A program made the translations under genes and the position numbers. A stretch of 64,000 nucleotides of DNA from Polaribacter sp. (GTDB taxonomy: Bacteria > Bacteroidota > Bacteroidia > Flavobacteriales > Flavobacteriaceae), in the NCBI RefSeq assembly GCF_965660385.1, contig NZ_CBFHZT010000009.1:8646-72645 (forward strand). Reading direction: 5' to 3'. Shown here one piece after another: positions 13,263 to 44,594 of this stretch. The notes below the pieces were generated by a model. That model saw nothing but the letters and a program-made list of their open reading frames with translations, made no database searches and was not told where the DNA came from. How positions within the stretch are numbered: position 1 is the stretch's first letter; every line of letters starts with the position of its first letter.

Positions 13263-13916
13263 TTAATTTCCTTTTTGATAATCTGCCAAAAATTTAGCCA
13301 AACCACTATCTGTTAAAGGATGTTTTAACAAACCTTCGATTGCGCTTAAAGGGCCTGTCATTACATCAGATCCTAATTTTGCACAATCTACAATATGCAT
13401 GGTGTGACGTATAGAAGCTGCTAAAATTTGAGTTTGAAAATTATAGTTGTCATAAACCGTTCTAATTTCCGAAATTAGGTTTAATCCGTCTGTAGAAATA
13501 TCATCTAAACGTCCTAAAAAAGGAGACACATAAGTAGCACCAGCTTTTGCAGCCAATAATGCTTGACCAACAGAAAACACCAAAGTAACGTTTGTTTTTA
13601 TACCTTTAGATGAAAAATATTTACAAGCCTTAATTCCGTCTTTTATCATCGGTAATTTTACCACAATCTGAGGGTTTAAAGCGGCTAATGCTTCACCTTC
13701 TTTAACCATACCATCAAAATCTGTAGCAATAACCTCTGCAGAAACATCACCATCCACAACATCACAAATGGTTTTGTAATGATTAATAATATTTTCTTGT
13801 CCAGTAATACCTTCTTTAGCCATTAAAGATGGGTTTGTAGTTACACCATCTAAAATACCTAAAGCTTGTGCTTCTTTAATTTGTGCTAAATTTGCAGTAT
13901 CTATAAAAAATTTCAT
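13263..13916 (-). CDS. fsa: Fructose-6-phosphate aldolase / short-type transaldolase
   Basis: MKFFIDTAN, GVTTNPSL, VVKLP Schiff-base Lys, YVSPFLGRLDD. Confidence 0.93.
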   Translation of the reverse strand: MKFFIDTANLAQIKEAQALGILDGVTTNPSLMAKEGITGQENIINHYKTICDVVDGDVSAEVIATDFDGMVKEGEALAALNPQIVVKLPMIKDGIKACKYFSSKGIKTNVTLVFSVGQALLAAKAGATYVSPFLGRLDDISTDGLNLISEIRTVYDNYNFQTQILAASIRHTMHIVDCAKLGSDVMTGPLSAIEGLLKHPLTDSGLAKFLADYQKGN

Positions 13917-28359: not shown

Positions 28360-30039
28360 CTACTTGTTCATTTTAATAGAATCTATTCGTTTTTGCAGTC
28401 GTTTTATTTCTTCTAACTTTTTTTGTTGGTTAGATAAGAGCTGAATGGAATCTAAAATTGCTCGGTTTTGCTCTAAAATGGTTTTCTCTTTTTCGAAATA
28501 AATATTTTGGTTTTCACTGGTTCTCCAGGCTTCATTAAGTTGCAAATATACTTGTTCATTCCATTTGCTGGGGTGTTTGGCATCAATCCAAATTACATCT
28601 CTATATTCTGCATCAATTAGCGCCAAATCTGGAGTTGCAGCACCATCAAATTGTGCATTTTCTTTTTTTATCGCAGAAATGGTACTGAGAAAAAACATAC
28701 GTTTACGACCTGCAATTTCCTTAATATAAGGTCTAAATTCTACAGGTTTGTTTACAGACCAATCGTATTCTTTACGAGATTCAATGACCTTTAATGGCAT
28801 TGCAGAAACGCCTGCATAACCTTCTTTTTTAGCAGCATGATCGTAAAAATACAACGCATTTGTACCATCTGCAGGAATAAAAACGCTGAAGGTTAAACTG
28901 GTTCTTTCTGCACCCACAGGTTCTAAACCAAACCAATGGTATAAACCACTGTAAGCACCAGTTTTGGTATCAGAAAAATCGAAATCGGTTACATAAGGTT
29001 GTTGGTTTTGATCGTCTGGTAATTGTGGAATTTTAACTGCAGTTTTCATATTCCAAGGCAAAGGATCTGAAAATCCACCTAAAAATTTTAAACTTTCAGC
29101 CTGTAATTTAGATACTTTTTCTGATAAGGTATTTTGTTTGGTTAAATAAGCATAGTTTTGCATTGCTGAAGGCGCAATGTACTTTCCAATACCAATGGTT
29201 ATTCTTTCAAAATAATTATGATCTCCATTATCAATAACCATTACACCACCAAAAGTTGGATATGGAAAAAAGAAACCTTTCCATTTTATCAAGCTCACCA
29301 CTTGTACCCAAGCTCCTTTATCGTTTTTCATATAATAGGTATCGCTTGGTTCGTAGTTGAACAACTGCCAAAGGTTAAAACGCTGTACAACTGCATTGTA
29401 AGTGTTTCTGCTAAATTTTAAAGATTCTCCGATTGTGAATTTAACCGGAATTCTATTTTCATTAGAAAACCTTGGAAAAGGTGTGGTACTAGAAACCGAA
29501 AAAACTTCTTCAGTATCGTCTTTAATGCCTTGCCAAGTATATTTTTCGGTAGGTTGAATAGCCATTGTCCATTGATTGTTATTATCTACTCTTACCAAGT
29601 GTGGTAAGGAAACATCTTTGGTTTCGCCTACAGATTCATTTGCCATAGAAAAGATATTTCTTAAAGGCTGAATTCTTTCGTTTTGGGTTAAAGGCAACTC
29701 TACAATTTCTATGCGATTTAAGTCGTTGAACACATTATAAGTCTGCATATAATTGTACATTTTGGAATGGAATCCAATATAATATATCAATCCGAAAAAA
29801 AGCGCTAAAAGACCTAATACACCAATGCGTTTGCCTGTACTCGCTAATTTCCTGAATTTTCGTAGGCCAAAAAACAAGACCATAAAGCACAATAAAATAA
29901 TGAAAATATATTTTCTGAAAAATAATAATGCTGGTTGATAATCATCTCTTAAAAAGAAGAGTAACCCAATTATCAATAATGATAAAAGAATGATGTTTCT
30001 TTTTTGTTTTGCTCCTTTTTGCCAATATGTTTTGATCAT
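28360..30039 (-). CDS. Hypothetical membrane protein (about 3 N-terminal TMs plus a large soluble domain)
   Basis: 559-aa ORF with hydrophobic N-terminal helices and a C-terminal coiled coil. No family recognised. Confidence 0.75.
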   Translation of the reverse strand: MIKTYWQKGAKQKRNIILLSLLIIGLLFFLRDDYQPALLFFRKYIFIILLCFMVLFFGLRKFRKLASTGKRIGVLGLLALFFGLIYYIGFHSKMYNYMQTYNVFNDLNRIEIVELPLTQNERIQPLRNIFSMANESVGETKDVSLPHLVRVDNNNQWTMAIQPTEKYTWQGIKDDTEEVFSVSSTTPFPRFSNENRIPVKFTIGESLKFSRNTYNAVVQRFNLWQLFNYEPSDTYYMKNDKGAWVQVVSLIKWKGFFFPYPTFGGVMVIDNGDHNYFERITIGIGKYIAPSAMQNYAYLTKQNTLSEKVSKLQAESLKFLGGFSDPLPWNMKTAVKIPQLPDDQNQQPYVTDFDFSDTKTGAYSGLYHWFGLEPVGAERTSLTFSVFIPADGTNALYFYDHAAKKEGYAGVSAMPLKVIESRKEYDWSVNKPVEFRPYIKEIAGRKRMFFLSTISAIKKENAQFDGAATPDLALIDAEYRDVIWIDAKHPSKWNEQVYLQLNEAWRTSENQNIYFEKEKTILEQNRAILDSIQLLSNQQKKLEEIKRLQKRIDSIKMNK

Positions 30040-30062
30040 TTTTCTTTTAATGTTTGGTTTAA

Positions 30063-30139
30063 GATGTTTGAGGTTTGAGGTTTGAGGTTTGATGCTTGAT
30101 GCTTGATGTTTGATGTTTGATGTTTGATGTTTGATGTTT
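30063..30139. repeat. Tandem heptamer array, 11 units of GAKGYTT
   Basis: Counted GATGTTT, 3x GAGGTTT, 2x GATGCTT, 5x GATGTTT. An inverted degenerate partner lies at 30203-30230. Confidence 0.95.
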
Positions 30140-30229
30140 ATAACTCAAAACAATTTATTTTAAATTTTAACTATTTATTGTTGGAATCCTAAACTAACAT
30201 GTTACATCCAGCATCAAGCTTCCAACTCC

Positions 30230-30751
30230 CTACAACAATCCTTTATCTTTTAAACGCTCTCTTGCACTTTTTTCATTTGGTTTAGGTGCTTCTTTTTTCT
30301 CCTCAATTTCTTCTATTTCTTTAACATCTGTAGTTTGTAAATCTTCAATAAAATCTTTTCCCTTTTCAATGACATCTTGAAATTTGTCTTCTAAAGATTC
30401 TGATTTTTGATCAATAACTGTGGATGACTTAAAAATGAATCCTGCAACATAAGTACCTATTAATGTTCCAAAAATCATAGAAGTAAATAAAGAAATGGTT
30501 GCCAAATCTATAGGAATTAAAAAACGAGTAATTATAATTGCGATTAAAAAAAATGCTGTAATAAATACCAAACGTAATAAAAAAGATTGTTGATAAACAA
30601 AGCCTTTTTTATCTGTTGCTTCCATTTGCAATTCTTTGGAATTCATCAATTTATTAAAAAAACGGTATACTTTATTTCCTTGAGATTCTCTCCAGAAAAT
30701 AACTGCTCCTAATAAAATGGAGGCTATAAATATGATAAGTTCTAGTGTCAT
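30230..30751 (-). CDS. Hypothetical 3-TM membrane protein with charged C-terminal tail
   Basis: 173-aa ORF, three hydrophobic helices, tail ending KSARERLKDKGLL. Confidence 0.75.
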   Translation of the reverse strand: MTLELIIFIASILLGAVIFWRESQGNKVYRFFNKLMNSKELQMEATDKKGFVYQQSFLLRLVFITAFFLIAIIITRFLIPIDLATISLFTSMIFGTLIGTYVAGFIFKSSTVIDQKSESLEDKFQDVIEKGKDFIEDLQTTDVKEIEEIEEKKEAPKPNEKSARERLKDKGLL

Positions 30752-30873
30752 AATTGGTAAATTGATGTACTCTATAAAATTAGTCTATTTTTATTAGAAT
30801 TTGTTACGTAACATATCAAACTAATTTATTTCGTAAATAAACTTACAAAATTTTGAAACTCTGCAGGAGTATG

Positions 30874-32388
30874 TTAATTCTTAAAAATTGAACTAACACT
30901 CTTAAAAAAGCCACGGATTCGAGAAGAAACTGAACCTACAAAACCTTTATCTTTCTCTTTCACATACTTTTCTCTATGCGTTTCTTTGTAATTATAAGTC
31001 CCTAAAATTTTAGCAACGCGTTCTTTATAAAAAGCTCCTTTGGTTTTATCGATTTGATAAATAAAATTCGCAAAACCATCTATTTCTGCCAAAACATTTG
31101 AGCCTCCATTCCAAGATTTGCCTTGAATTCCGTCTTTTTCAATATGATGTAATAATGCTCTAAAACGTTTTAATGATTTCTTATTTACATTCGGTTTCTC
31201 ATTTACAACTACTCCTGTAACCTCTTGTCTTTGATGAGGTTTCATGATACGAAGTTTATCAGGATGCAACACAAAATTTTCATCTTCTACAATTTTCTTA
31301 GAATATTTTAAAATTGCAGGAATTTTTTTAACCTGTTCTTTATGCGAAGAAAACGTAAGATCATCTACATATCTAGAATAATTGAATCCGTATTTTTTGG
31401 CTAATCCATCTAAACGAAAATCCATTTTTTTACACAATATATTGGTAATTGCAGGACTACAAGGAGATCCTTGAGGTAAAAATCGTTCGCCCCTTTGTGC
31501 AAAATAATTTTCGCCTAATAATGATATGTCTAAAATTTTAGGTTCAGAACACAATAACGCAAAAATAACAGCCACTTGTTCTGAATATCCAAAGGACTTA
31601 AATACGCCTTTTATTCTTTTGTACGTTATGGTTGGAAAAAAGTTTTTTAAATCTTGATTGATAACCACAGCTTTGTTTACATGAGGTTCTGCATTCGTTA
31701 AAATAGATTTTCCAATTACACAACCATTGGCTTTTGGATGCGTTTCAACTTTATTTAAAATTGCTTCTAAAATAAAATGTTGTGCCTTTTTTAATCTTGG
31801 CATTGGCGCAGAAATCAATCGAAAACCACCCGTTTTTTTAGCGACTTTAAAACGTTTAAAATGATTTATTTTAGCATTTTTTCTTGAAAAAGTTAAGAAT
31901 CTAAGTTCGCTTAAGGTAATTTTCATTGCATCTGCGACATCTTTGGCAGATTCTAAAATGGGTAAATTTAAAGATTTAAGCCTGTTTTTATCAGTCTTTT
32001 TATCATTTAATTGATGCGAAAAACCCTCACCCAAATAAACAATTTCTTGTTCTTTTTGCAAGCGCCATTTTTCAGCTTTTTCTTTTTTAAGTAAAGCTCT
32101 TTTTTCTTTGGTTTCTTTTTGTTTTTCTTTGGATAAGCGCTTGCGTTCTTTGTGTTTATTGACAATAAAAGCATCAATATCTTCAATGCTTTTTTCCTTT
32201 TTTAAAAGAGTATTGAGCTCGTTAGAAAGTGTACGTTCTTCTTTAAAAAAAGTATTTACTTCTTCAAAATCAAGGTTTTCATCTGTCCAAAAACCCAAAC
32301 GTCTCATTTCTGAGAGGATGTATTCCTGTTTAGACGATCCTTTAATTTTATCGTAAATTTCTTGTCTTCTCTCTGTTGAATTGCTCAT
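30874..32388 (-). CDS. Retron-type reverse transcriptase with N-terminal charged extension
   Basis: KKTGGFRLISAP, retron region X NAEPH, DLKNFFP, LPQGSPCSP, catalytic YVDD, region Y EVTG. ATG at 32388 preferred (504 aa). Confidence 0.95.
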   Translation of the reverse strand: MSNSTERRQEIYDKIKGSSKQEYILSEMRRLGFWTDENLDFEEVNTFFKEERTLSNELNTLLKKEKSIEDIDAFIVNKHKERKRLSKEKQKETKEKRALLKKEKAEKWRLQKEQEIVYLGEGFSHQLNDKKTDKNRLKSLNLPILESAKDVADAMKITLSELRFLTFSRKNAKINHFKRFKVAKKTGGFRLISAPMPRLKKAQHFILEAILNKVETHPKANGCVIGKSILTNAEPHVNKAVVINQDLKNFFPTITYKRIKGVFKSFGYSEQVAVIFALLCSEPKILDISLLGENYFAQRGERFLPQGSPCSPAITNILCKKMDFRLDGLAKKYGFNYSRYVDDLTFSSHKEQVKKIPAILKYSKKIVEDENFVLHPDKLRIMKPHQRQEVTGVVVNEKPNVNKKSLKRFRALLHHIEKDGIQGKSWNGGSNVLAEIDGFANFIYQIDKTKGAFYKERVAKILGTYNYKETHREKYVKEKDKGFVGSVSSRIRGFFKSVSSIFKN

Positions 32389-32399
32389 AAAACAAAAAA

Positions 32400-32628
32400 G
32401 GCAACAATAAGATGTATTTTTTTTCCCTTCGTACTCTCTAATGACTGAATTGAACAACTCCAGTGAAATACGTACTGGTGTATTATTTCACTTCGCAGAA
32501 GTTTAACCGGAAATAGTACACCAGTACGTATTTCACAAGTTAAGTTCGAGTCAGTGACGCGTTCGTTGTCTAGTTACAAGATTGGCGATCCACCAATCGA
32601 AATGCAAGGTTTTTATCTTATTGTTACC
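32400..32628 (-). ncRNA. Retron msr-msd ncRNA (predicted)
   Basis: Terminal inverted repeats 32615-32628 / 32400-32413 (14 bp, one G-U), 8-bp stem-loop at 32580-32598, and a long hairpin with a perfect 20-bp core (32463-32482 / 32517-32536). Ends 11 nt before the RT ATG. Confidence 0.85.
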
Positions 32629-32646
32629 AAGTTTTAAATATATTAA

Positions 32647-34275
32647 TTAATTTTTATCAAAAGCCAATCTTGTTGCTAAAATATGCGCACAAGGCCCTTT
32701 TGTCATTTTATTTTTATAATAGTCATTACATGTGCATTTTCCATCTACAATTTTTAAATCGCTGTTGATGACAACACTTGAATTGTATTTATTTTTTACC
32801 AAAGCTGACAACTCAGCCTTTTGGTTTAATGAATTCGATTTTAAATTGGAAACTGCACCATTTTCCATCAATTGATAAGCTTCTTTATCAGTTTCGCTAG
32901 AAAAACGTAACGCTTCTATATCAATTCCTTCTCTTTTTAATTCTCGAATTCGATACACATTATTCTTTAAATCGTAAATTACTTTCCCTGCTTGCGTAAA
33001 AGTTACCAAAGATTGCTGCACAGTTTGCTCATCAATCTTTAAATTTTGAGCAATTTTTGATGCTGTATTCAACCAATCTTTTCGCAACTCTAAATACACA
33101 GATTGCATTGTTGTTGCTGGTACTTTTGTTCTTGGCATTAGCAAATCTAATTGCGTTGATTGTGCCCAATCATTGGCTGTCCAACCAGATAAACCTAAAG
33201 TAAAATACATTTCATTAGTTAAATGAGCTGTGTAAAATGATGGCAATCCAGAGCCTAATAAATGAACTGTGAATTTAGTGGTTATTGGCAACAAACGTTC
33301 TAATAACGTGATTCTTCTTCTTCCCCAAACTCTAATTTCTTGTGCTTTATTTCCTTGATAAATAGACTGTAAACATTCAATTTCTATATTCCAAGGTTCA
33401 AAAACGGCGATAATCGGTTTGCCTGGTTTTAAAATATATTTTATGGCTCTTGGACCCGTTTTTTCTTTATTTCGTTTTAAAACAGATATAAAATTCGCAA
33501 TATCTATAGGATGCAAATCAAAGGAAACTTTATCACTTGTCATTGCTGTAGAAACTTGTAAAAACCCACGAACCCAACTATCAGGTAAATCAATTTTTAC
33601 TTCTCTGTAGGTTTCTTCTCCTGTTGTCTTTACATCAAATCCTTTAGGATTTATTTTAAATTCGGTGTTTTTATAGGTTCTTATTTTTTGAAATTCGTCA
33701 TATAATTTCTTAGAATAATCAATATTTGTGGTGCCGCATTTAAATTCGTCAACATTATTAAAAACCTCATAACCACAAGATAATTTGCCGTAAACGGATT
33801 CATCCTTACTAAAACATTCAAAAAACACTTGATCTGGATGCACTGTAATTACTGGATCTAACACAAACCAAGCTGCATAATCTCTTTTGTATAAATATTG
33901 AAAATAGGCTCTTTGCGCTTTATAATAAGGAGCTGTAATTTTTTCTCTTTTAGAACGAACAATTTTTAACTTGCTTTGTAAACGATTAATTTCGTCTTTT
34001 AACTTTGATAATTCTCCTGTAGCTTCTGCGACCCAAACATCTTCCTGACTTTTTAGCCAAGTTAAATAGGCTGTATTGTCTTTTGGCTGAAAATTAAAAT
34101 CGGCAGTAACAACATTATGCAGTGCTGAAATGGCTTCACGAAATGGAATTTTATTGTCTAAATTCCCCACAAAATACGTAGGTTCTCGTAAAACATCTGG
34201 TGCAAAATTAACGCCAGTTGCAGACGAACTGTTTTCTACTTTACTATTTCCACTATATTTAAAATTAAACTTCAT
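32647..34275 (-). CDS. SWIM zinc-finger domain protein (retron-associated)
   Basis: C-terminal CTC...CAH (CxC-xn-CxH) SWIM motif, DPVITVHPD and PDSWVRGFLQV conserved-looking blocks. 11-bp overlap with the upstream gene. Confidence 0.85.
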   Translation of the reverse strand: MKFNFKYSGNSKVENSSSATGVNFAPDVLREPTYFVGNLDNKIPFREAISALHNVVTADFNFQPKDNTAYLTWLKSQEDVWVAEATGELSKLKDEINRLQSKLKIVRSKREKITAPYYKAQRAYFQYLYKRDYAAWFVLDPVITVHPDQVFFECFSKDESVYGKLSCGYEVFNNVDEFKCGTTNIDYSKKLYDEFQKIRTYKNTEFKINPKGFDVKTTGEETYREVKIDLPDSWVRGFLQVSTAMTSDKVSFDLHPIDIANFISVLKRNKEKTGPRAIKYILKPGKPIIAVFEPWNIEIECLQSIYQGNKAQEIRVWGRRRITLLERLLPITTKFTVHLLGSGLPSFYTAHLTNEMYFTLGLSGWTANDWAQSTQLDLLMPRTKVPATTMQSVYLELRKDWLNTASKIAQNLKIDEQTVQQSLVTFTQAGKVIYDLKNNVYRIRELKREGIDIEALRFSSETDKEAYQLMENGAVSNLKSNSLNQKAELSALVKNKYNSSVVINSDLKIVDGKCTCNDYYKNKMTKGPCAHILATRLAFDKN

Positions 34276-37200
34276 CAGCTACATCTTTAATTAATAGTGG
34301 AATTTCTAAATTCGGGAATTGTGTTGCAATGGTTAGTAAAATATCTATATTTTTACTTCTATCAATTATGGTTTTTGTGTCTAAAATTGAATGAATTAAA
34401 CCAATTGTCATTTTTGCAACAGCTTTATTTTTAACAGATTCCTGCTCTAAAAACTGGTATACTCTTGTTTTTGTGGCTCTATTCGTATTGATAGTAAACA
34501 AACTTGTTCTAAAATAATTTTCTAATTTTAAAATTACATTTTGATTATCTTTTGCAAAAGAATTCAAATAATTGGTTACAAAAAATTGCATTTCTTTGCT
34601 TGGATGTTCTTGTAGTTTTTCTAACAAAGGCAATCCTTTTTCATTAGAAAAATGTTTTGTCATCATTTTAATCGCAAATTGCTGAACTTCTATTTTTACG
34701 TTATCCGAAATGTATAACAATACATCTGCTGTCCATTTTTCTGGCTGTATGTGTTTATCAAAATAAACACAAGCCCAATCAATTACATCTTGCCAATTTG
34801 CATTAAAAATAGACAAAGCTACTTCTAATTCATAATTAATTTTGGTTGTATTCTTCTCAAAATAATCTTGTACTTTTTTACGAATCGCAAAAATGGCACT
34901 ATCTGCTAATTGGATTACTTTTTCAATAGGCATGGTAGCCAATTGAATTCTTTTCTCAAATAAAGGCAATCCTAAATTCTGCGCAAACTCATAATCTGAA
35001 AGAACAAAAGCAAATATTTGTTCTTCGGATAAAAATGCCAAATCGTCTTTAAAATAAGTAGTTAACAGCTGATAACTGTTTTCGTGCAAACCTTCGTAAA
35101 CTTCTGATTCTGTAAGTACTTGCAAAAGCTTATCTAATAAACTTTGTTTGAAATTACGATCTAACTTTACCAACCTTTCTATGGTTGGCTGAATGGCTTC
35201 GCGAACTTCTTTGTATTCTGAAAAACAGAAACCAACAATTTCTTGTTTATTTTCTAATAAAAAAGAATCTGGAAAATGCGATAAAATTTCAATTCCTGCT
35301 TTGCGCAACAACTCATCATCTGCATTAATATACGCTTCAAAAGAGTCTTTAAATAATTTGTAAGCAGGAGTTGTATTGTGTTTTGCTAAATTGATCGCAA
35401 ACAATTTATTGCTTACTAAAGTTGAATTTGATAATTCTGTGATTTTATTTGCTGATGTTCCTTTTAGCAATTCACCAAACTTCGTATTTCCAATTAAATT
35501 AGCGATTGCAATTAAAAACTCTTTGGTAAAATGTGTGTTTTTTTGAAATAATGGCCCTAATTGATGAATATCAATTTTATGATTGTAGATAATTTCTTCT
35601 TTATACAATTCACTTAAAAAAGCAATAACCTCAACTTGATTGGTAAACAACAAACTCGAAATAAACTCTTGGTTATTGAATAAATTTATTTCGTATTTCT
35701 TTAACCAATAAAAACCTAATTCTAAGGCTTTTTCGTTTCCAGAATTTAAAAGTCCGATTACGATATCTTGTTCTGGTTGTGAGTTTTCGTATTTTGTTTT
35801 TAGAATATCAACAATTAAGGCGATTACTTTTGGGTGATAATGATTCGCTAATTTTGAGATTATTTCAGTTGATAAATCTTCTAAAAACTGCGGATTTTCA
35901 TCGATAATTTTTAATGCAAAATCTATGGCAACATCACTTTTAGCATTGGCCAAAATTTGTAAAACTGCTTTAGAACTAGTATTCCAAATTGTAGATAAAG
36001 CTTCTTCTCTTTTACTAACTTTTTTATCATCTATAACATAAAACCACTTGTCTTTTTGTTGCGTAAATCTTGTAGATGCACCATATAAAACATACATTAA
36101 AGCTGTATAATTGGCATATTTAGGAAAACATCTTTGTTCATTATTATAGGTTTGAGTTTCCCAATTGTAATTATAATTATACACAATTTCTTCTTTTACA
36201 TCATCTTCTTTATCATTTAAAGAAAGTAGCATTTGAGTTGCATATTTTACATATGTTTCTGTATCATTTATACTTAAATCATACATTTTTTTGTAAATAG
36301 AATGATTAAAATACGACTTCGTTTTTCTAGAAAATGCAACTGAAGGATTTGGTTTTGCCATTTCTTTTAGCACAGAAACCCAATTTCCTTTTTCATCATA
36401 AAAGTAATCCGAAGTAAATCCTGGTTTATTTAATGCCAAACGTTTGGAAAGTATCGCAAAAAACGCAACATCATTGGTGATTTGCGCTGTTCTAAAAATA
36501 TATCTAATCGATTTAAAAGTATTCGCTTTAAAAGGAATTCTTTCAATTATTTCGAGAATTTTTCCACGAAGCTGTTCATCATCAAAAGCAAAAATATACG
36601 CATAATATAAAAGTGATGCTTTAGTAGCATCAGCATTTAAAAACTGAATGGCTAGCGATGTAAAAGTATCTTTAGTAATGTAGTTTTCTACCTCTTTTTT
36701 AATTTCTTTTTTATCAGTTTCATTTCCGAATTTTAAGAGAAATGCACAGGCTGCTCTACCACCAATTGTACTAAATTTAGCAGTTTTAAAAACTTCTAAA
36801 ATCTTGTTTTTGTATTCTGTAATATTAAAAGAAGCCAAAACTGTAATGGCATTATATTGCTCAAATTGGTCTTTAGAGTCAATAAATTCAGCAATTAAAG
36901 CTGAAGCCTGAATCATTTTTAAATTGCCTGCTCTTAAAATAATTCTTGAGACTTTCCAGTTCCTGGCATAAGTGTTTTTTACAGCTTGTTCTAAATATTT
37001 TAGGATTGTTTTTTCTCGAACTGTATTTATATGAACTTTTGGTGTAGCTTTTTTTTCTAGTTCTAAATTTTCAGAATATCCCTTCTTTTCTTTGCTTTCA
37101 ATTAATTTATCGAAGATTTTTACAGCTTCTTCATACCCAACAGGAAAAACTGTTTTTGTGCCTTCTCTTAAATTGGCACCTCTTCTTCCATATCTAAAAT

Positions 37201-37300
37201 TTACGACAAATAAATCTTGATTTTCACAAATATCAACTTCATAAACCTTATCAGATTTGCCTTCAAAAAAATAGAGTGTTTTTTGTTTTACTAGTTTCAA
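34265..37300 (-). CDS. WGR-domain protein with HEAT/ARM-like helical repeats (retron-associated)
   Basis: N-terminal SDKVYEV...VNFRYGRRG...EAVKIFDKLIESKEKKGY WGR-type domain, then about 900 aa of helical repeat-like sequence. TTG start. Confidence 0.82.
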   Translation of the reverse strand: MKLVKQKTLYFFEGKSDKVYEVDICENQDLFVVNFRYGRRGANLREGTKTVFPVGYEEAVKIFDKLIESKEKKGYSENLELEKKATPKVHINTVREKTILKYLEQAVKNTYARNWKVSRIILRAGNLKMIQASALIAEFIDSKDQFEQYNAITVLASFNITEYKNKILEVFKTAKFSTIGGRAACAFLLKFGNETDKKEIKKEVENYITKDTFTSLAIQFLNADATKASLLYYAYIFAFDDEQLRGKILEIIERIPFKANTFKSIRYIFRTAQITNDVAFFAILSKRLALNKPGFTSDYFYDEKGNWVSVLKEMAKPNPSVAFSRKTKSYFNHSIYKKMYDLSINDTETYVKYATQMLLSLNDKEDDVKEEIVYNYNYNWETQTYNNEQRCFPKYANYTALMYVLYGASTRFTQQKDKWFYVIDDKKVSKREEALSTIWNTSSKAVLQILANAKSDVAIDFALKIIDENPQFLEDLSTEIISKLANHYHPKVIALIVDILKTKYENSQPEQDIVIGLLNSGNEKALELGFYWLKKYEINLFNNQEFISSLLFTNQVEVIAFLSELYKEEIIYNHKIDIHQLGPLFQKNTHFTKEFLIAIANLIGNTKFGELLKGTSANKITELSNSTLVSNKLFAINLAKHNTTPAYKLFKDSFEAYINADDELLRKAGIEILSHFPDSFLLENKQEIVGFCFSEYKEVREAIQPTIERLVKLDRNFKQSLLDKLLQVLTESEVYEGLHENSYQLLTTYFKDDLAFLSEEQIFAFVLSDYEFAQNLGLPLFEKRIQLATMPIEKVIQLADSAIFAIRKKVQDYFEKNTTKINYELEVALSIFNANWQDVIDWACVYFDKHIQPEKWTADVLLYISDNVKIEVQQFAIKMMTKHFSNEKGLPLLEKLQEHPSKEMQFFVTNYLNSFAKDNQNVILKLENYFRTSLFTINTNRATKTRVYQFLEQESVKNKAVAKMTIGLIHSILDTKTIIDRSKNIDILLTIATQFPNLEIPLLIKDVADEV

Positions 37301-37355
37301 TTTGCTAATTTTTGTTTTAAAAATAAGGAATGTTGATTACAATTCAGTGATTTTC

Positions 37356-38591
37356 TTAAAAATTATTTCTTATCGTTTCAACAACCCAATCTTTTTTAGA
37401 ATCTTGCCAAGTTTTGAAATTTTCGTAAAAATCTTCTTTATCATACCAATACCAAAACAGCACATCTTTTGGAGCAATATTTATGAGTAATTTCCAGATT
37501 AAATCTTGATGATGTGGTCGTAAAGAAGAATGTGGTTTGTGCAAGGCAAAATAAAATTCTTGATCTACAAAATCCTTGATTTTTGTATCGCTATTTGTTG
37601 TTTTTTTCTCTAAATAACGTTCAACACTCATTACTTTTTTACGATTATTGATATCGAGTTTGTTCAAGTAACTTTTGAAAAGCATTTTATCTTCTAAAAT
37701 TTCATTTACAGGATGTTGTGTTTCCTGAAGCGCTTCTCCGAAAATAAATTTTTTAATGCGTTCATATCGTTTTGTAGTAACTTCTTTTGCCAAATCACAC
37801 TCAATAATAAAATGATCTTTTAATTGCATTATCAACTCAGGTTGTAAAATATGAAACATTAAAACATCATAAGCAGTGTCATCAATCGCTTCTTGATACG
37901 CTTCCCAGTTTTCGAAAACTAAAATTGGTGTGATAAAATTTCTTAATAAATATATTCCTCCAAATGCTTTGGTATAAAAAGAATCTGAGGTATAAATAAT
38001 AGAATCTAAAGTGATGTTTCTATTTCTTAAATCGCCATATTTTTTTGCTGATGTTAATAATTGTTGATGAATGTTTTCATCGATAAAATTATTACCTCTT
38101 TTAAAAATTTCTATCAGTTTTAATTGTTCTTCCTTTGCTTTTTTTAAATTATCTATCAAATGAAACCTGATTGTAACCTCTTCATATTTTAAAACTTCTA
38201 ACGGTTCGTAAAACACATCAATATTCTGATCAAAATCGATACAAATGGCTGAATCTCTAGTAATATCTTGAATTTTTTGTTGATGCGTTCTAAATACCAA
38301 CTTCATTAATTCTGTATCAAAAGAATGAAATGGATTGTAAATTGGTAAGCCTTTTTGCAAAGGTGTAATTAAAATTGCATGCGGATTTGCTTCACCATTG
38401 TTTAAATAGAATATTTCGTTTTTTTCTTCAGCAATTTCTGGACTCCAACCAATTCCATCAATAGAAAATGAGGTCAATTTGGTTTTAGTAAAACCCAATT
38501 TCACCAAACATTTATTGTAACGTTCAACTAATTTTCCACTGATGGGAATTAGTTCGCTTCTGTATAAATTTGCTTGTTTTAGTTTGTTCAT
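37356..38591 (-). CDS. Conserved hypothetical protein (DUF6638-like)
   Basis: LVERYNKCL, IDGIGWSPEIA and FYTKAFGG blocks recalled as DUF6638. Family assignment unverified. Confidence 0.6.
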   Translation of the reverse strand: MNKLKQANLYRSELIPISGKLVERYNKCLVKLGFTKTKLTSFSIDGIGWSPEIAEEKNEIFYLNNGEANPHAILITPLQKGLPIYNPFHSFDTELMKLVFRTHQQKIQDITRDSAICIDFDQNIDVFYEPLEVLKYEEVTIRFHLIDNLKKAKEEQLKLIEIFKRGNNFIDENIHQQLLTSAKKYGDLRNRNITLDSIIYTSDSFYTKAFGGIYLLRNFITPILVFENWEAYQEAIDDTAYDVLMFHILQPELIMQLKDHFIIECDLAKEVTTKRYERIKKFIFGEALQETQHPVNEILEDKMLFKSYLNKLDINNRKKVMSVERYLEKKTTNSDTKIKDFVDQEFYFALHKPHSSLRPHHQDLIWKLLINIAPKDVLFWYWYDKEDFYENFKTWQDSKKDWVVETIRNNF

Positions 38592-38725
38592 AAGGCCTAT
38601 CCTAAATCCATTTCAAAAGAAAGGACTTTTATGCTTTTGATTTAATTATTTGAATGATTCTTAATGAAACATTTATTGCCGTATTTAATTTTCTGAGTCT
38701 TTTTATTTCAATTCAAAATAATCTA

Positions 38726-38758
38726 AGACCTCACAGGTTTTAAAAACCTGTAAGGTCT
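38726..38758. repeat. REP-like palindrome / hairpin downstream of the NUDIX gene
   Basis: AGACCTCACAGGTTTT-A-AAAACCTGTAAGGTCT: 16-bp arms with one mismatch, 2 nt after the stop codon. Confidence 0.75.
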
Positions 38759-38760
38759 AC

Positions 38761-39354
38761 TTAATTTATTAACTTATTTATCTGCAAGTACTGTAGCAAC
38801 ATAATTGTTCTTGCATCTACAATTTCTTCATTTTCAATCATTTTTAGAGCATCAGAAAAATTAGTTTCTAAAACTTCAATTTCTTCTCCTTCTTCAATTA
38901 ATCCTTCACCTTTTTCCTCTTTATCATTCTCAGAATATTCTGCGACATAAATATGCACTTGCTCCCACATTAAACCAGGTGATAAAAACACTTTAGCAAC
39001 TTTTTTTAAGTTTTTAATATGATACCCAACTTCTTCTTTCGTTTCACGAATTGCGGTTTCTTCTGCTGTTTCATTTTTATCAATTGCACCACCCACCACT
39101 TCAACACAAAAACCATCAGCAACACCAGCAACATACATTGGTGTTCGAAATTGCTTTGAAAGCACTACTTTTTTAGTTGATGGATTATATAATAGCACTC
39201 CAACTCCGTCATTTTTGCCAAAAACCTCGTGCGTTAAACGTGCGGTTTTTCCATTTTTAAAAGTAAAATCGAAACTAACTTGTTCTAATTTTGCCCAAAT
39301 GTTGGAAATTACTTTTGAGCTAACATTTTGTATTTTATTTTTAATTTGCATCAT
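38761..39354 (-). CDS. NUDIX hydrolase (NudK / ADP-ribose pyrophosphatase-like)
   Basis: Nudix box GAIDKNETAEETAIRETKEEVG, KQFR and IVDARTI. Start at 39354 or 39351 overlaps the ATPase stop. Confidence 0.88.
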   Translation of the reverse strand: MMQIKNKIQNVSSKVISNIWAKLEQVSFDFTFKNGKTARLTHEVFGKNDGVGVLLYNPSTKKVVLSKQFRTPMYVAGVADGFCVEVVGGAIDKNETAEETAIRETKEEVGYHIKNLKKVAKVFLSPGLMWEQVHIYVAEYSENDKEEKGEGLIEEGEEIEVLETNFSDALKMIENEEIVDARTIMLLQYLQINKLIN

Positions 39355-41302
39355 TAAAATTCTTTCTTGCTTCCAAATCAATATTTAATTGATTCACTCT
39401 TGCATCCACTTTTCGTTTAAAATCGGTATCTGCAATCGTGGCAACATTGTCTAAATACCTTACTACTTCTTGTCTTCTAATTTCAGAAAAATCCAATCCT
39501 CTCATATTGCTTTTCATCAATTCTTGCAACATATTCAACTTTGTTTTGTAATCTTTTTTGAAGTAGATTTCTGGATTTTCAAACCAATCTTTTTCCAAAT
39601 CAAAATCTGTTAATCGCAATGAAATTGCAGATTGAATGTTTCTAACATCTCTGGAAGAAAAGAATGGAAAAATCTTTTGAATCTCTTTGTATAAACTAGC
39701 AAAAAACAAATGTTCGTTGGTTTTATGTTTTTGAGTGGCTTTGTCATACGCTTGTAACACCCTTTCTTCTGATGGTTTTTCTACGGAATTTAAAACGTCT
39801 CCCATATTTTTTACAAAACCTTGATCTTTTAAGAAATGATAATTCTGCGGATTTTGCATATTCACAAAATCTGGAATGGTTTTTTCAAACTTTTTCCACC
39901 ATATATAATCTTGATCTAAAAAGTCATGTGCGGTTCTTGCTCCATCAATTTTAAATCTACCTTGCACTCTAGAAATTACAGCTTTATCGAGCATTTCTGG
40001 CAAGTTTGTAAATAAACCCACTGAAGAATTTCCGTAATTTACTGCGTAAGCACCTTCTGTATAACGTAAGAAAACACCAATCACTTCTTTAACTCCAGCA
40101 GAAACCCCTTGTGCAGTTCTTTCTTGTAAGTTATTTTCTGCATCATCAATGGGCGCAAAAATAATTTTTGTTGGGTCTTGCATTGGTTTCATCCATGCTA
40201 CCATTTTTTCTGCTGATCCTCCTTGAAAAGTAGAAATCAACGTATCTGGCATTGGGTGAAATAAAAACGGAATGTCTAAATGATCACAATGTTCTTTTAA
40301 ACGAGTAGCAATGGCTGCAATTAACATCGATTTTCCTGTTCCTGGAATTCCATATCCCATAAAAACAGGCATAAATCCACCTAATTCTTGAAACGGATTT
40401 TTCTGCGCCTCAAAATCGTAACTCAACATTCTTTCTGTTAATCTACGTGCAAAATGTTTGGCATCTTTATTTCCAACAATTTGTTCGAACTGAATTTTAT
40501 TGAAGGCTACACTTTTTGCGTTTCCTTGAAAAACATTCTCCCAACCTGAAATTGAAAAATCGGAATTTTCTAATTTATAAGTTCTATCTGTAATGGTTTC
40601 TATGTATTCTAAACTGCTTTTGCGTAACTGAATTTCATCAATTAAAGCCTCAAAATAGACTACTGTAAAATCTACTACATCTTTGTCTGTTTTAATGATT
40701 TCTGGGTGATCTAAATATTTATCATAATAAAACAAAGCACAAGCAATTCCTTTTAAAGGTGATAAAAAAGATACTTCTGGAATGCCAGCAAATTTTTGTT
40801 TCATCACAGACAAATCATTACTAACAAACGGTTTTAAATCGTGTAGAATTTTATAGGATAATGCAAATAATTGAAAAGCTGTCGCAGTTTGTAATTTACT
40901 CTCAAATTCTCTTTTTTGGGATGAATTTAACGCTGATTTTCGCTCATTTAAAGATGATAAACCTGAGGCATCATAATAAGCATCTTTAATCCAAATACCC
41001 AAAGTTAAGCCTTCTTGAACCGCGAATAAGGTTTGATTTAAATGTACAGGAATTGCAATGGAATTTGGTAATAATCGCTTTTTTAAGGCTAGAATAGTTT
41101 TGGAAACTGAAGTAACTTCAATATTGCTTCCATTATTTGCTCTTGACAAATAGAATAAAATTGATTCATCTTTTGCATCTTTTTCCCTGCTTTTTGCTTT
41201 ATTACCTTGCTCCCATTGAACAGATTTAATATAATCTGTTGCTTCATCACGAAGTACATCTAATTCGTTTAGTTTTATTGGAAAAGTTGAAGTGTGTTCC
41301 AT
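39341..41302 (-). CDS. AAA+ ATPase (classic AAA clade-like) with long N-terminal domain
   Basis: Walker A GIPGTGKS, Walker B variant APIDDAE, SRH-like TNLPEMLDKAVISR. Confidence 0.85.
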   Translation of the reverse strand: MEHTSTFPIKLNELDVLRDEATDYIKSVQWEQGNKAKSREKDAKDESILFYLSRANNGSNIEVTSVSKTILALKKRLLPNSIAIPVHLNQTLFAVQEGLTLGIWIKDAYYDASGLSSLNERKSALNSSQKREFESKLQTATAFQLFALSYKILHDLKPFVSNDLSVMKQKFAGIPEVSFLSPLKGIACALFYYDKYLDHPEIIKTDKDVVDFTVVYFEALIDEIQLRKSSLEYIETITDRTYKLENSDFSISGWENVFQGNAKSVAFNKIQFEQIVGNKDAKHFARRLTERMLSYDFEAQKNPFQELGGFMPVFMGYGIPGTGKSMLIAAIATRLKEHCDHLDIPFLFHPMPDTLISTFQGGSAEKMVAWMKPMQDPTKIIFAPIDDAENNLQERTAQGVSAGVKEVIGVFLRYTEGAYAVNYGNSSVGLFTNLPEMLDKAVISRVQGRFKIDGARTAHDFLDQDYIWWKKFEKTIPDFVNMQNPQNYHFLKDQGFVKNMGDVLNSVEKPSEERVLQAYDKATQKHKTNEHLFFASLYKEIQKIFPFFSSRDVRNIQSAISLRLTDFDLEKDWFENPEIYFKKDYKTKLNMLQELMKSNMRGLDFSEIRRQEVVRYLDNVATIADTDFKRKVDARVNQLNIDLEARKNFNDAN

Positions 41303-41306
41303 TTTA

Positions 41307-41469
41307 GTTAGCAGTTTTTCAGTTTGCAGTAAGCAGTCATCATCTGACTTTTCTTATTGTAATTTTTTTGTATATCTCTTTTCTTCTAATATTTAATATT
41401 AAAAATATTTTTTTTATTGGTTTACTTTTGAGTATTGACTGCTGACTGAATACTGTTTTACTGCCAACT
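41307..41469. repeat. Heptamer-periodic inverted-repeat intergenic element
   Basis: AGT recurs at 41306/13/21/28/35 and ACT at 41438/45/52/60/67 (mirror spacing). Arms pair at about 25 of 34 positions. Confidence 0.8.
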
Positions 41470-41479
41470 AACTAATATC

Positions 41480-41839
41480 TCACCTAAATTTACCAGGGTT
41501 ATTTATCATATAATTTAGAAGTTTTCCAACTTCTTCACTTTTGGCTTGTAAATCTAATTTCTTTTCTTCTGTTATATATTCACAAGCTAAAGCAAAATCT
41601 AACCATAATTGAGTTTCAGAGTTTTCGCTATCAGCATCAGACATTTTACTTTTAAAATGTTTTTCATATTGTCTTTTTCTATATCCTTCAGAAATATTAG
41701 AACAAACAGACCTACTAGAACGAATAATTTGAGAGGTTAAACTAAATAGTTCTGATTTAGGAAATATTTTTGTTAAATGAAAAATTTCCATTGCTAAACT
41801 AAACCCTTTTTGATATACTAATAATGATTTAAAACTCAT
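41480..41839 (-). CDS. Four-helix-bundle protein (23S rRNA-IVP / Avd-like family)
   Basis: FKSLLVYQK, FPKSELFSLTSQIIRSSRSVCSNISEG and SETQLWL motifs. Confidence 0.92.
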   Translation of the reverse strand: MSFKSLLVYQKGFSLAMEIFHLTKIFPKSELFSLTSQIIRSSRSVCSNISEGYRKRQYEKHFKSKMSDADSENSETQLWLDFALACEYITEEKKLDLQAKSEEVGKLLNYMINNPGKFR

Positions 41840-41847
41840 CTTTTTTT

Positions 41848-41968
41848 AGTCTAAAGTCTAAAGTTATCTATTCATTTTACTACTCTTTGTTAACTTAATA
41901 TTTTATTTTTTTTACTTTTATTTCACAAACAAGCTGACTGAATACTGGCTACTGAAATACTGTTTACT
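41848..41968. repeat. Heptamer-periodic intergenic element upstream of the four-helix-bundle gene
   Basis: AGT at 41848/55/62 and ACT at 41937/44/51/59/66. Shares the 15-bp GCTGACTGAATACTG with 41441-41455. Confidence 0.7.
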
Positions 41969-43001
41969 TAATCTCGCTCATTAAAATTGGCTCTTTTTCA
42001 AGTGTATCTAATGCTCTAGGTACTTGATTGTACAATAATTGTATAATTCTATGAGGCGCAAAAAGGTATTTTTTATTTTCCACTTCACTCCATTTTTGCA
42101 TGGTTTGTTTGGTAAAGAACCCACCTTCTGTAAACGTATTTCCTGAGAAAACTTCATCAATTTTTAGCGATAAAGCATACGAATCTAAAGACACCGTTTT
42201 TTCAGCTATTGCTTTTAAAATAGTATGTGTTATTTGGTTTTCATCTTTAGCAAAAACATTATGTAATGGCCCTAAATCGATTCTTTTGATATGTTTAGGA
42301 CGAATTTCCTCTAACTTACGATCAATATTATACGCCATTGTATCTAATGGCATTTCTCTATCAGCACTTTCTTTTAGTACTTTATAAATGGTTTCTTTAT
42401 CTTTTATGGCATCTTTTTTATCATAATCGAAATACATAAAACACACAAAAGGCCTATTATGACTTACATCATAAAAACTCCAACTTGTCATATATTCATA
42501 ATTTGCATTTTCTGGACCTTCTAAAATTTTTCCTTGTACAAAACGATTAAAAATTAAATTTTTATCGACAGAAGTATAGTAAATAATTGATGATGCCTTT
42601 TGTAATTCTCTATTTTTTATGGGTTGTTTTTTACGCAGAAGTGTATTTAAAAACTGTGATTTTAAAGTATCTGTATCTACTAAATCGTCAATATAATTTT
42701 CACGTAATTCTAAATCGTTATATAAAAAACGAAATTCTAAATAATTTGGAAAACCAGAATCCGTTAAATCAATTTTCAGGTCATCTTCTTCATCATACAT
42801 ATACTTAATACGCATTGCATCAATAGAATATAATAATAAATCTGAATATTGTTTAAAGAAAATCAACTCTTGTTGAGTGCATAAATGTTCTTGTTGCATG
42901 CTTACAATTAATTCTTTCAACACAAAATCTACCATTTTATGATAAAAAATGTATTGTTCTTTGGAATTTAAAACGGCAGAGTCTAAAGGAGTTGGAATCA
43001 T
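41964..43001 (-). CDS. Conserved hypothetical protein
   Basis: 345-aa ORF, co-oriented within the run. No family recognised. Confidence 0.75.
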   Translation of the reverse strand: MIPTPLDSAVLNSKEQYIFYHKMVDFVLKELIVSMQQEHLCTQQELIFFKQYSDLLLYSIDAMRIKYMYDEEDDLKIDLTDSGFPNYLEFRFLYNDLELRENYIDDLVDTDTLKSQFLNTLLRKKQPIKNRELQKASSIIYYTSVDKNLIFNRFVQGKILEGPENANYEYMTSWSFYDVSHNRPFVCFMYFDYDKKDAIKDKETIYKVLKESADREMPLDTMAYNIDRKLEEIRPKHIKRIDLGPLHNVFAKDENQITHTILKAIAEKTVSLDSYALSLKIDEVFSGNTFTEGGFFTKQTMQKWSEVENKKYLFAPHRIIQLLYNQVPRALDTLEKEPILMSEIK

Positions 43002-43006
43002 AGTTT

Positions 43007-43063
43007 AGTTAACAGTTGATAGTCATCAGTCTAAAGTTTACAGTAAAATACTGACTGCATACT
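43007..43063. repeat. Heptamer-periodic intergenic element
   Basis: AGT at 43007/14/21/28/35/42 (exact period 7), followed by ACT at 43050/54/61. Confidence 0.65.
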
Positions 43064-43067
43064 TATT

Positions 43068-44411
43068 TTAAGATAACATATCATCATTAGAAACATTTTT
43101 CTTTGGTGCTACTGTATTTTCAGCATCATCTAAAGTTGGTGTTTCTTTATCAGCTTTATAATAATCTTCAAAGATTTCTTTCATATCAATTCCATATCTG
43201 TCTGCAAAGTTTTTCTGAATATCTTGGTCTTTTCCTCTAATTTCCTGAAGCGCTTCTGCATAAGTACTGTACACACCTTTCATTACTTTTTCATGAACAG
43301 GAATATTATCCATCATTTCTTGACGAGCTCTAGCACTTGCAGAATGCATTGATGCTAAAGTAGCACCAATATGCTCATCTGTTTTAACACCTAAATGTTC
43401 TAAAATCGCAGCAAATTCTTGATCTGTTCTTGCCTTTAATGCAACAACATAACCATCATAATACTTTAACCTTTCTTCAGTATCTGATTTTAGTTTAGCT
43501 CTATGCGTTTGTAAATTTGATCTTAAAGAAGTTAACACTTTAATCGTTAAATTATGCTTGTGTACAAAACTATCTTTACTGGCAGCTAACGTTGTATAGG
43601 CATTTTTTAAACCTTCTAATTCCTCTACTTTTTGCTCAATTGAGGTCATTTTTCCAATCGCCTCAGAATATGCTGTAGATTGTTTGTCTGCAATTTCATC
43701 TAACTCTTGACGAGATTGTTTTAATAAGGCATATTGCTCCTCTAATTGATCTTCAATTGCTTTCTTTTTTTCTAATGCTTTTGTGTGATTTTTAGAAGCC
43801 TCAACAATGGCTGTTTTTAATTTTTCTTCTACTTCTTTAATTTCGACCTCCCTATTCTTTAAACGCGTTACAGCAGCTTGAGATTTATAAGAAAGTTCGC
43901 TTAATAAAGTTTCTACATCTGCACTTTCTATACGCTCTTGAAACATTGCTTTTGCCTTATTATCTGCACTTGCCCTTATTTTTTCAGCTTCAGCAAATTC
44001 TTGTTCTTCTTTTTTAATTTTACTTTTTCTTCCCCAAAGGTTATTCCACCAAGTATCTGGTTTATTTTGCGCATCTTCTAACTCAATTCTTGCACGTTCT
44101 AACTCTTTTTGAGCGTCATCAATAACTTTTTGTTCTTTAGCATTTAGTGATGAAAACTTTTCAAATAAAATTCCAACTTCATCTTGATAATCGGTTAGGT
44201 CTTTTATGGCATCTAATAGTGTAGTTCTATCTTTTTCTGCCATATGTACAACATCATCTAAAGTGGCATTCAATATTTTTTGACGCTGTTGAGGGTCATC
44301 TTCTTGCGCTAATTTAGATTTCATGGTATCTACAGCTTTACCCCAATTTACTTCTACTTTTTCAGTTTTTTCATTAGAGTTTGTTTCTAATAAATCAAAT
44401 TCTTCTGCCAT
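43068..44411 (-). CDS. Long coiled-coil protein
   Basis: 447 aa rich in Glu/Lys/Ala heptads, a WWNNLWG amphipathic motif and acidic termini. Confidence 0.8.
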   Translation of the reverse strand: MAEEFDLLETNSNEKTEKVEVNWGKAVDTMKSKLAQEDDPQQRQKILNATLDDVVHMAEKDRTTLLDAIKDLTDYQDEVGILFEKFSSLNAKEQKVIDDAQKELERARIELEDAQNKPDTWWNNLWGRKSKIKKEEQEFAEAEKIRASADNKAKAMFQERIESADVETLLSELSYKSQAAVTRLKNREVEIKEVEEKLKTAIVEASKNHTKALEKKKAIEDQLEEQYALLKQSRQELDEIADKQSTAYSEAIGKMTSIEQKVEELEGLKNAYTTLAASKDSFVHKHNLTIKVLTSLRSNLQTHRAKLKSDTEERLKYYDGYVVALKARTDQEFAAILEHLGVKTDEHIGATLASMHSASARARQEMMDNIPVHEKVMKGVYSTYAEALQEIRGKDQDIQKNFADRYGIDMKEIFEDYYKADKETPTLDDAENTVAPKKNVSNDDMLS

Positions 44412-44594
44412 ATAGTTTAGTTTTTTAGTTTAACAATTTTTAAATAAGCAATTTCGTTATTTTTTTTAAGTATATAAAACATAACTTCATTTATATGTAG
44501 CTTGAATTACAGAATTGTTACAAGTTTTTCATTTTTTCATTAATATTATTAATTTAATCTATGTTAAAAAAAATGAGTTACGATAGTTTTTAAA

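Follow-up and report, generated by a model that had tools for sequence, protein, structure and literature searches.

A type XIII retron in a spacer of a conserved six-gene operon of Polaribacter

The locus

The DNA analysed here is a 64,000-nucleotide stretch from Polaribacter sp. (NCBI RefSeq assembly GCF_965660385.1, contig NZ_CBFHZT010000009.1; hereafter the window), and our subject is a 16-kb run of co-oriented genes within it (28360-44411) in which a retron lies among the genes of an operon. The listing of open reading frames (ORFs) gives 11 in this run, all on the minus strand and without a strand switch, encoding proteins of 447, 345, 119, 653, 206, 411, 1011, 542, 527, 173 and 559 aa; plus-strand ORFs are short ones only, nested in the genes for the reverse transcriptase (RT) and the 345-aa protein. 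Plus-strand glycosyltransferase genes (26622-28171) mark one edge of the block and a plus-strand gene for a cargo protein of the type IX secretion system (44620-49050) the other, and GC-content is flat over the whole block at ~30%. A first-pass annotation, made from the letters of the window, had described a minus-strand run of eleven coding sequences and one non-coding RNA (ncRNA). The ORF listing bears out this layout, and the domain labels then given to the genes agree with matches in Pfam and NCBIfam and, for the 173-aa and 559-aa proteins, with hydropathy.

The run is, in all likelihood, a mosaic of four layers and not a single system. The first layer would be a vertically inherited host operon of six genes, here called cc447, hyp345, AAA, DUF6638, 3-TM (for its three transmembrane segments) and mem559. 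The second would be a Nudix gene, an accessory of one flavobacterial sub-lineage that is translationally coupled to the AAA gene, and the third a four-helix-bundle mini-gene, a roaming passenger. The fourth would be a complete type XIII retron, inserted once, in the orientation of the operon, into the spacer between DUF6638 and 3-TM. Coordinates are collected in Table 1.

Table 1. Features of the 16-kb run and of the region upstream of it, in window coordinates and in the order of the operon.
Feature	Position	Strand	Description
Conserved elements upstream of operon	44428..44523	-	TTGTAACA-N16-GCTACATAT at 44523-44493
Leader boxes upstream of operon	44458-44446 and 44439-44428	-	AACGAAATTGCTT and AAATTGTTAAAC, respectively
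cc447 (cassette gene 1)	43068..44411	-	447-aa all-helical coiled-coil protein
hyp345 (cassette gene 2)	41964..43001	-	345-aa protein
Four-helix-bundle gene	41480..41839	-	119 aa; PF05635 (23S_rRNA_IVP) 1.5e-31, TIGR02436 1.4e-29
AAA (cassette gene 3)	39341..41302	-	653-aa classical-clade AAA ATPase; PF00004 at residues 317-452, 2.7e-9
Nudix	38761..39381	-	206 aa; NUDIX 5.9e-13; start overlaps AAA stop by 41 nt
DUF6638 (cassette gene 4)	37356..38591	-	411 aa; PF20343 3.4e-34
Inserted type XIII retron unit	30869..37355	-	~6.5 kb, from DUF6638 stop to REP-like palindrome
Retron accessory protein, WGR + HEAT/ARM	34265..37300	-	1011 aa; PADLOC WGR_XIII 5.5e-293, residues 1-1008
Retron effector candidate, SWIM protein	32647..34275	-	542 aa; PADLOC SWIM_XIII 1.2e-222, residues 1-540
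Retron ncRNA (msr-msd)	32400..32628	-	between SWIM and RT; 14-bp a1/a2 stem, msr hairpin, long msd hairpin
Retron RT	30874..32388	-	504 aa from ATG 32388; RVT_1 8.4e-21; PADLOC RT_XIII 1.8e-177
3-TM (cassette gene 5)	30230..30751	-	173 aa, three hydrophobic segments (hydropathy), acidic C-terminal tail
Heptamer array	30063..30139	-	11 x GATGTTT on + strand, in spacer between 3-TM and mem559 (30040-30229); Tandem Repeats Finder score 119
mem559 (cassette gene 6)	28360..30039	-	559-aa membrane protein, three hydrophobic segments

The retron and its insertion

Type XIII retrons, a group represented by Mx162, Mx65, Ne144 and Sa163, have an RT of clade 10, a SWIM/DEDE protein (cluster 114: DEDE motif, winged helix and SWIM) and an ncRNA of their own; ahead of the SWIM/DEDE gene there is usually one for a WGR-HEAT/ARM protein of cluster 216 (Mestre et al. 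2020, PMC7736814). They are known in Bacteroidota (PMC13712802). All the components are matched in the window: RT, SWIM protein, WGR-HEAT/ARM protein and a structured ncRNA with a terminal a1/a2 stem. The RT_XIII model scores 589 bits against the RT, where the next-best RT model scores 291 bits. The 1011-aa protein has Pfam matches to WGR and HEAT_2, and the 542-aa protein has the Pfam SWIM domain near its C-terminus, at residues 501-534; its DEDE motif is taken from the description of the cluster, by way of the full-length match to SWIM_XIII. The longest ORF for the RT (527 aa, from TTG 32457) overlaps the 3' part of the ncRNA over 32389-32457, and the match to the RT model begins at residue 24 of that ORF. 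On both counts the RT most likely starts at ATG 32388, 11 nt past the a2 repeat.

An alignment of four Polaribacter type XIII retrons shows the ncRNA to be conserved, with 73 predicted pairs; compensatory changes are seen at nine of them, eight belonging to the msd hairpin and one to the a1/a2 stem. A search of the ncRNA against Rfam gave no retron family, only chance miRNA-like matches on the hairpin. As far as can be judged from sequence, the element has every testable feature of a type XIII retron. Nothing essential sets it apart from other retrons of the type: it is of note solely for its site inside an operon and its vertical inheritance there.

The first-pass annotation had counted the WGR-HEAT and SWIM genes among those of the host cluster. 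This assignment falls: both are parts of a type XIII retron and therefore not host genes. In addition to their PADLOC type XIII matches, they accompany the RT in two other Polaribacter genomes from which the outer genes of the run are absent. True type XIII RTs were found in the genome studied here (G000) and in two other Polaribacter species (G029 and G011), which lack the AAA and DUF6638 genes; in those two the trio of WGR, SWIM and RT stands alone, in G029 behind thiE-thiG-thiH-thiF. By analogy with other retrons, the RT would copy the msd part of the ncRNA into multicopy single-stranded DNA (msDNA); the complex of msDNA and RT would restrain the nuclease-like SWIM/DEDE protein and its WGR-HEAT partner until phage infection upsets the complex. 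The retron would act alone, with the operon spacer as a neutral, transcribed landing site, and an autonomous tripartite defence module is the most likely description of it on these analogies.

The surroundings of the retron in related genomes make the insertion visible. Searching 20-kb stretches for all window proteins by tblastn, we found nine retron-free Polaribacter species in which cc447, hyp345, AAA, (Nudix), DUF6638, 3-TM and mem559 follow one another in the same order and on the same strand, with the 3-TM gene directly after DUF6638 or past a short spacer. A wider set of loci was drawn from a search with an 11-sequence alignment, which gave 545 genome matches; the six-gene order is kept throughout the best 80 of these, all of them Flavobacteriaceae, and 79 of the 80 are without the retron. 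The first-pass annotation had left it undecided whether the retron had inserted between DUF6638 and the 3-TM gene or was functionally tied to the cluster, for instance as a guard. The nine species and the 79 loci uphold the insertion; the guard tie, weighed below, is unlikely.

One further genome, that of Polaribacter sp. R77954 (NZ_CP138992.1), has a retron in the same slot. The junction between DUF6638 and WGR (55 nt) is 93% identical between the two genomes, and in neither is a cassette gene downstream of the insertion disrupted. On the 3' side the RT stop abuts a palindrome resembling repetitive extragenic palindromic (REP) sequences, which is also present between DUF6638 and 3-TM in retron-free relatives. 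Synonymous divergence (dS) between the two genomes is 0.63-0.91 for the retron genes and 0.61-0.97 for the flanking cassette genes, a match that points to an old insertion inherited vertically; the ratio of non-synonymous to synonymous divergence (dN/dS) between them is 0.11-0.15 for the retron and 0.045-0.09 for the cassette. In a tree of the concatenated cassette proteins the closest sampled relative of our genome (L096, also Polaribacter) groups with it to the exclusion of R77954, that is (R77954,(L096, G000)), and this relative is without the retron. The simplest account is a single insertion in the common ancestor of our genome and R77954, vertical inheritance under purifying selection, and loss in the closest relative. 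Coevolution of the type XIII RT with its own WGR-HEAT and SWIM partners, and vertical inheritance, have already been noted (PMC7736814).

It could be argued instead that the retron arrived in the two genomes independently, the spacer being a hot spot, or that it was transferred by homologous recombination of its flanks. The spacer between DUF6638 and 3-TM does bear REP-like palindromes in relatives, it takes other insertions (six of the 80 loci hold a four-helix-bundle gene there), and the closest relative lacks the retron, as such a history would allow. Against it, the upstream junction is 93% identical over its entire 55 nt, the equality of dS in retron and flanks argues against recent transfer and unrelated donors, and one gain and one loss suffice for the tree. 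Separate arrivals, or transfer by recombination, are thus unlikely.

Two observations on this and neighbouring spacers may be recorded here. REP-like palindromes of the type CCTGCAAGGTTTCAAAACCTTGCAGG recur in operon spacers of several Polaribacter genomes: in the window at 38726-38758 (-) and 30842-30868 (-), in L034 at 13517-13607, and in the spacer of L096. In R77954 a second four-helix-bundle gene (L100 20330-20960) lies between the retron RT and the 3-TM gene, flanked by inverted heptamer arrays of the GAAGTTG type.

The six-gene operon and the contents of its spacers

The genes of the first layer occur together far beyond this genome. Those for AAA and DUF6638 are both found in exactly the same 10 of 37 Polaribacter species sampled, and of 20 other Flavobacteriaceae genera sampled, 18 keep the six-gene order. 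The AAA gene is present as a single copy in 94 of 300 genera across the family, with 68-85% identity, the range that also holds for cassette proteins generally; a housekeeping neighbour has 76-93%, and dN/dS of the cassette genes is about 0.04-0.10. Loci from other phyla were reached through representative proteins and the contigs that encode them. A metagenome-assembled genome of Patescibacteria (L174/L176) has, in order, proteins of 485 aa and 364 aa, an AAA protein of 674 aa, a DUF6638 protein of 436 aa, and proteins of 233 aa and 597 aa; the same six-gene layout was found in two further metagenome lineages, and variants of it in others.

The co-occurrence of these genes across many genomes, in the same order and on the same strand, agrees with the view of the first-pass annotation that the outer genes form a multi-component unit. 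The membership then proposed holds for the six outer genes and has to be corrected for the rest: the WGR-HEAT and SWIM genes belong to the retron, the four-helix-bundle gene is a passenger and the Nudix gene an accessory.

Ahead of the operon, TGTAAC stands ~116 nt upstream of cc447 in 73 of 74 Flavobacteriaceae loci and CGAAATTGC ~48 nt upstream in 66 of the 74; in this genome the combination of the two has a single site, ahead of cc447. Being conserved and unique in the genome, these elements fit one dedicated promoter and leader for the operon, and they are probably its promoter or operator. A regulon search of the whole genome with the conserved leader box returned chance matches only. A scan for sigma-70 promoters, a method ill-suited to Bacteroidota, gave 77 sites against 80.8 expected, which is no enrichment, and TAnnTTTG is present inside genes only.

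Five of the six cassette proteins are without a characterised relative. The exception is the AAA protein, whose AAA domain is flanked by an N-terminal domain of ~300 aa and a C-terminal domain of ~200 aa, both of unassigned type. Its nearest relatives in the Protein Data Bank (PDB) are CdvC/Vps4, VAT and Rpt4, at E-values of only 1e-3 to 1e-2. Its Walker A motif is GIPGTGKS and its Walker B motif IFAPIDDAEN, in which DD replaces DE; N433 (the sensor-1 Asn), R445 and R551 are invariant among 25 diverse homologues. An exhaustive search of 1.84 billion representatives placed the family in only 431 clusters at 50% identity, one of them from the Patescibacteria genome.

With PDB sequences as the target, profiles of cc447, hyp345, DUF6638 and mem559 gave no match. 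The cc447 protein is 71-95% identical across Flavobacteriaceae, and an AlphaFold2 model of it (pLDDT 68.5) is all-alpha with helices of 45-93 residues; it received no assignment from Pfam, PDB or Foldseek, the top 50 Foldseek matches being generic coiled coils. For hyp345 there was no match in Pfam, NCBIfam, PADLOC or PDB; its position between cc447 and the AAA gene is constant in the loci compared, and the Patescibacteria copy is 29% identical. The DUF6638 gene adjoins the AAA gene in Flavobacteriaceae, Patescibacteria and further metagenome lineages; the family was not found in 14 model genomes checked, and the literature searched gave no mention of it. In the loci compared, the 3-TM gene is the next cassette gene after DUF6638, and counterparts of 168-233 aa stand there in remote cassettes. 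In the Patescibacteria and other remote cassettes the final gene encodes a protein with 25-36% identity to mem559. A model of mem559 (AlphaFold2, pLDDT 85.6, pTM 0.82) shows three N-terminal transmembrane helices, a beta-rich domain (~400 aa) and, at the C-terminus, one long helix; Foldseek found no structural neighbour in the PDB (best E 3.5e-3, TM ~0.2), and there was no sequence match. By the positive-inside rule, the large domain would lie outside the cytoplasm. Beyond the end of the mem559 gene, between it and a GT25 glycosyltransferase gene, is a Flavo-1 RNA motif (Rfam RF01705; 28218-28315 (+); 73.7 bits where the gathering score is 42, E 6e-15).

In about 58-60 of the 80 nearest loci the Nudix gene fills the slot between AAA and DUF6638, where it usually overlaps the AAA stop (median 14 nt). 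It is present in just two of the 20 more distant genera and absent from the Patescibacteria and other remote cassettes examined, a distribution that marks it, on sequence evidence, as a clade-specific accessory. The protein resembles the NudK/YffH/ADP-ribose pyrophosphatase subfamily (TIGR00052, 141.9 bits against a cut-off of 79.55) and scores under the cut-offs of the NudK, NudF and NudE equivalogs; what sets it apart from that subfamily is its translational coupling to an AAA gene and its restriction to one flavobacterial sub-lineage. Nudix proteins of this slot (L094-L173) fall into two groups by identity to the window protein, ~40-49% and ~55-93%, unlike the cassette proteins, whose identity varies smoothly over the same loci. 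Either two lineages occupy one slot or the Nudix protein has evolved much faster.

The 119-aa gene is a clear member of the 23S rRNA intervening-sequence protein / bAvd family (PF05635, TIGR02436). It is found in 18 of the 80 related loci, in two different slots, and has no copy in the closest relative, from which it appears to be a roaming, mobile passenger. Membership of a diversity-generating retroelement (Avd with an RT) was considered and rejected: the Avd equivalog (DivGenRetAVD) reaches 30.6 bits where the cut-off is 80, the RT lies 9 kb off and is of retron type, and in 17 other loci the gene occurs without any RT; no search was made for template and variable repeats. The four-helix-bundle genes here and in R77954 lie between inverted heptamer arrays, and similar arrays occupy the spacer between 3-TM and mem559, where the heptamer array pairs with inverse heptamers at the 5' end of the spacer to form a long hairpin (folding energy -34.1 kcal/mol, z = -3.84). 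This spacer looks like a cassette site minus its four-helix-bundle gene, or a processing stem.

Insertions of other kinds are common in the operon. At least one spacer is longer than 300 bp in 59 of the 80 loci, and the contents include MazF+RHH, an RDD membrane protein, amidohydrolase-SnoaL, an S26 signal peptidase, a hexapeptide acetyltransferase, a CarboxypepD_reg protein and a giant CheB-CheR-PAS protein. The MazF toxin and RHH antitoxin genes lie co-oriented between cc447 and hyp345 in three other Polaribacter species (L035 6251-6828, L036 9627-10204, L038 6320-6895). In uncultured Tenacibaculum a fusion protein of 1490-1618 aa with CheB, CheR and multiple PAS domains (L143 13445-18298, L157 13670-18139) is encoded, with other genes, in an 8-kb insertion between Nudix and DUF6638. 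Clearly, the spacers of the operon accept co-oriented insertions, of which the retron is one among many.

Retron, operon and the possible role of the operon

If the retron were coupled to the operon, it might guard the AAA+ machine and fire upon its inhibition by phage, or it might need a stress-responsive promoter of the operon to be expressed in time. That it is co-oriented, that the WGR gene starts just 55 nt past the DUF6638 stop with no terminator-like site found in the gap, that purifying selection has maintained it at this place from the split of the two species onwards, and that a MazEF conflict module occupies another spacer of the operon in three Polaribacter species are what such a reading would lead one to expect. 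The retron is present, however, in just two of about 110 cassettes examined, the closest relative has lost it and kept an intact cassette, and the same retron type stands at unrelated sites in G029 and G011. Moreover, most passengers of the spacers are ordinary metabolic or membrane genes, and the coevolution reported for the RT involves the WGR-HEAT and SWIM proteins of the retron itself and not host genes (PMC7736814). The presence of unrelated passengers in the spacers of other genomes makes a functional tie of either kind unlikely, and with it the guard relationship proposed in the first-pass annotation; we consider coupling quite improbable. Two points nonetheless weigh against full autonomy of the retron: co-orientation kept over a dS of ~0.8 would also fit dependence on operon transcription or on a shared stress, and since retron and MazEF are both conflict systems there may be some enrichment for such genes. 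A possible, less certain side reading is that the transcribed spacers serve as a tolerated landing pad in Flavobacteriaceae, in which conflict elements such as the retron or MazEF could settle and then pass vertically.

The first-pass annotation had also remarked that the host cluster could not be matched to a described system, and for the six-gene operon this holds: no described system was matched in Pfam, NCBIfam, PADLOC, PDB or the literature searched. PADLOC-DB 2.0 gave generic matches only, to IetA for the AAA protein (1.4e-5) and to JetC for the coiled-coil protein (0.007), and none for the other four proteins. Our search of the literature on Vps4-like AAA operons found no description of the cassette, nor does a survey of phage shock proteins describe the operon (PMC11237479).

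The closest comparison is with Vps4/CdvC and ESCRT-III (CdvB, Snf7) and with PspA/Vipp1, which are alike in placing a classical-clade AAA protein beside a long helical protein and membrane proteins. In both PDB and NCBIfam the AAA protein finds its best match in CdvC/Vps4, though a marginal one (NCBIfam CdvC, E 1.2e-3, 17.8 bits against a cut-off of 650; PDB 4lcb, 1.4e-3, over ~80 residues). The MIT domain of Vps4 was not found in the AAA protein (Pfam, E up to 10), and its Walker B motif has DD, unlike the DE of those proteins. The cc447 protein has no Snf7 or PspA match (Pfam, E up to 10), and the 50 best Foldseek matches of its moderate-confidence model include no structure of ESCRT-III or PspA; the 345-aa protein, DUF6638 and the 559-aa membrane protein are without counterparts in ESCRT and Psp systems. 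With a weak CdvC match, no MIT and no Snf7/PspA fold, we reject membership of the ESCRT-III/Vps4 (Cdv) systems.

A further possibility is that the six genes themselves serve in anti-phage defence, as a system not yet described, and that the 16 kb as a whole is a defence island. One might point to the weak PADLOC matches, to the conflict genes inside the cassette (the retron here and a toxin-antitoxin pair in other Polaribacter), and to the patchy distribution among congeners and genera (10 of 37 and 94 of 300). The operon is, however, single-copy and stable in order, with a stable neighbourhood beside a carboxyltransferase gene in several genera. Its family-wide identity is near that of the housekeeping neighbour, its dN/dS is lower than that of the retron, and it is present in the reduced genomes of Patescibacteria; no nuclease, methylase, TIR or other effector-type domain was found in it with Pfam or PADLOC. 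Conservation, copy number and dN/dS make a defence role for the cassette, and a defence island for the block, very improbable.

What the operon does instead can be approached through the types and predicted topology of its proteins. At the membrane's inner face, a hexameric AAA motor with two cytoplasmic partners would remodel or take apart the coiled-coil protein, and the 3-TM and 559-aa proteins would anchor the AAA assembly, the beta-rich domain of the latter facing the periplasm. It is possible, if doubtful, that the operon encodes such a complex, driven by the AAA protein, seated at the cytoplasmic membrane and extending through one partner into the periplasm, as an envelope-maintenance or trans-envelope machine. 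The case against it is that the mechanism draws on domain type, topology prediction and analogy, that the cc447 model has a pLDDT of only 68.5, and that cc447 and the AAA protein miss the defining features of ESCRT-III and Vps4. In broader terms, we tentatively suggest that the operon may be a phylum-spanning bacterial envelope machine: a divergent AAA motor with DD in its Walker B motif and two cytoplasmic partners, acting on a coiled-coil protein and coupled through two membrane proteins to an extracytoplasmic beta-rich domain.

Two things that are naturally merged when the raw sequence is read, a retron of an ordinary kind and a conserved host operon, are now separated. The retron shows that a conserved operon can take in a defence element, and that the element can then be passed on vertically with host-like synonymous divergence. 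Newness is claimed for the six-gene operon only, and its basis is the absence of matches, not a demonstrated new mechanism. The operon is the more valuable part, single-copy and with its order kept from marine Flavobacteria to Patescibacteria, and cultured, sequenced carriers (such as Polaribacter sp. R77954, P. porphyrae and Tenacibaculum ovolyticum) make it directly testable. Should it prove to be a machine acting across the cell envelope, it would be one that microbiology has not yet named.

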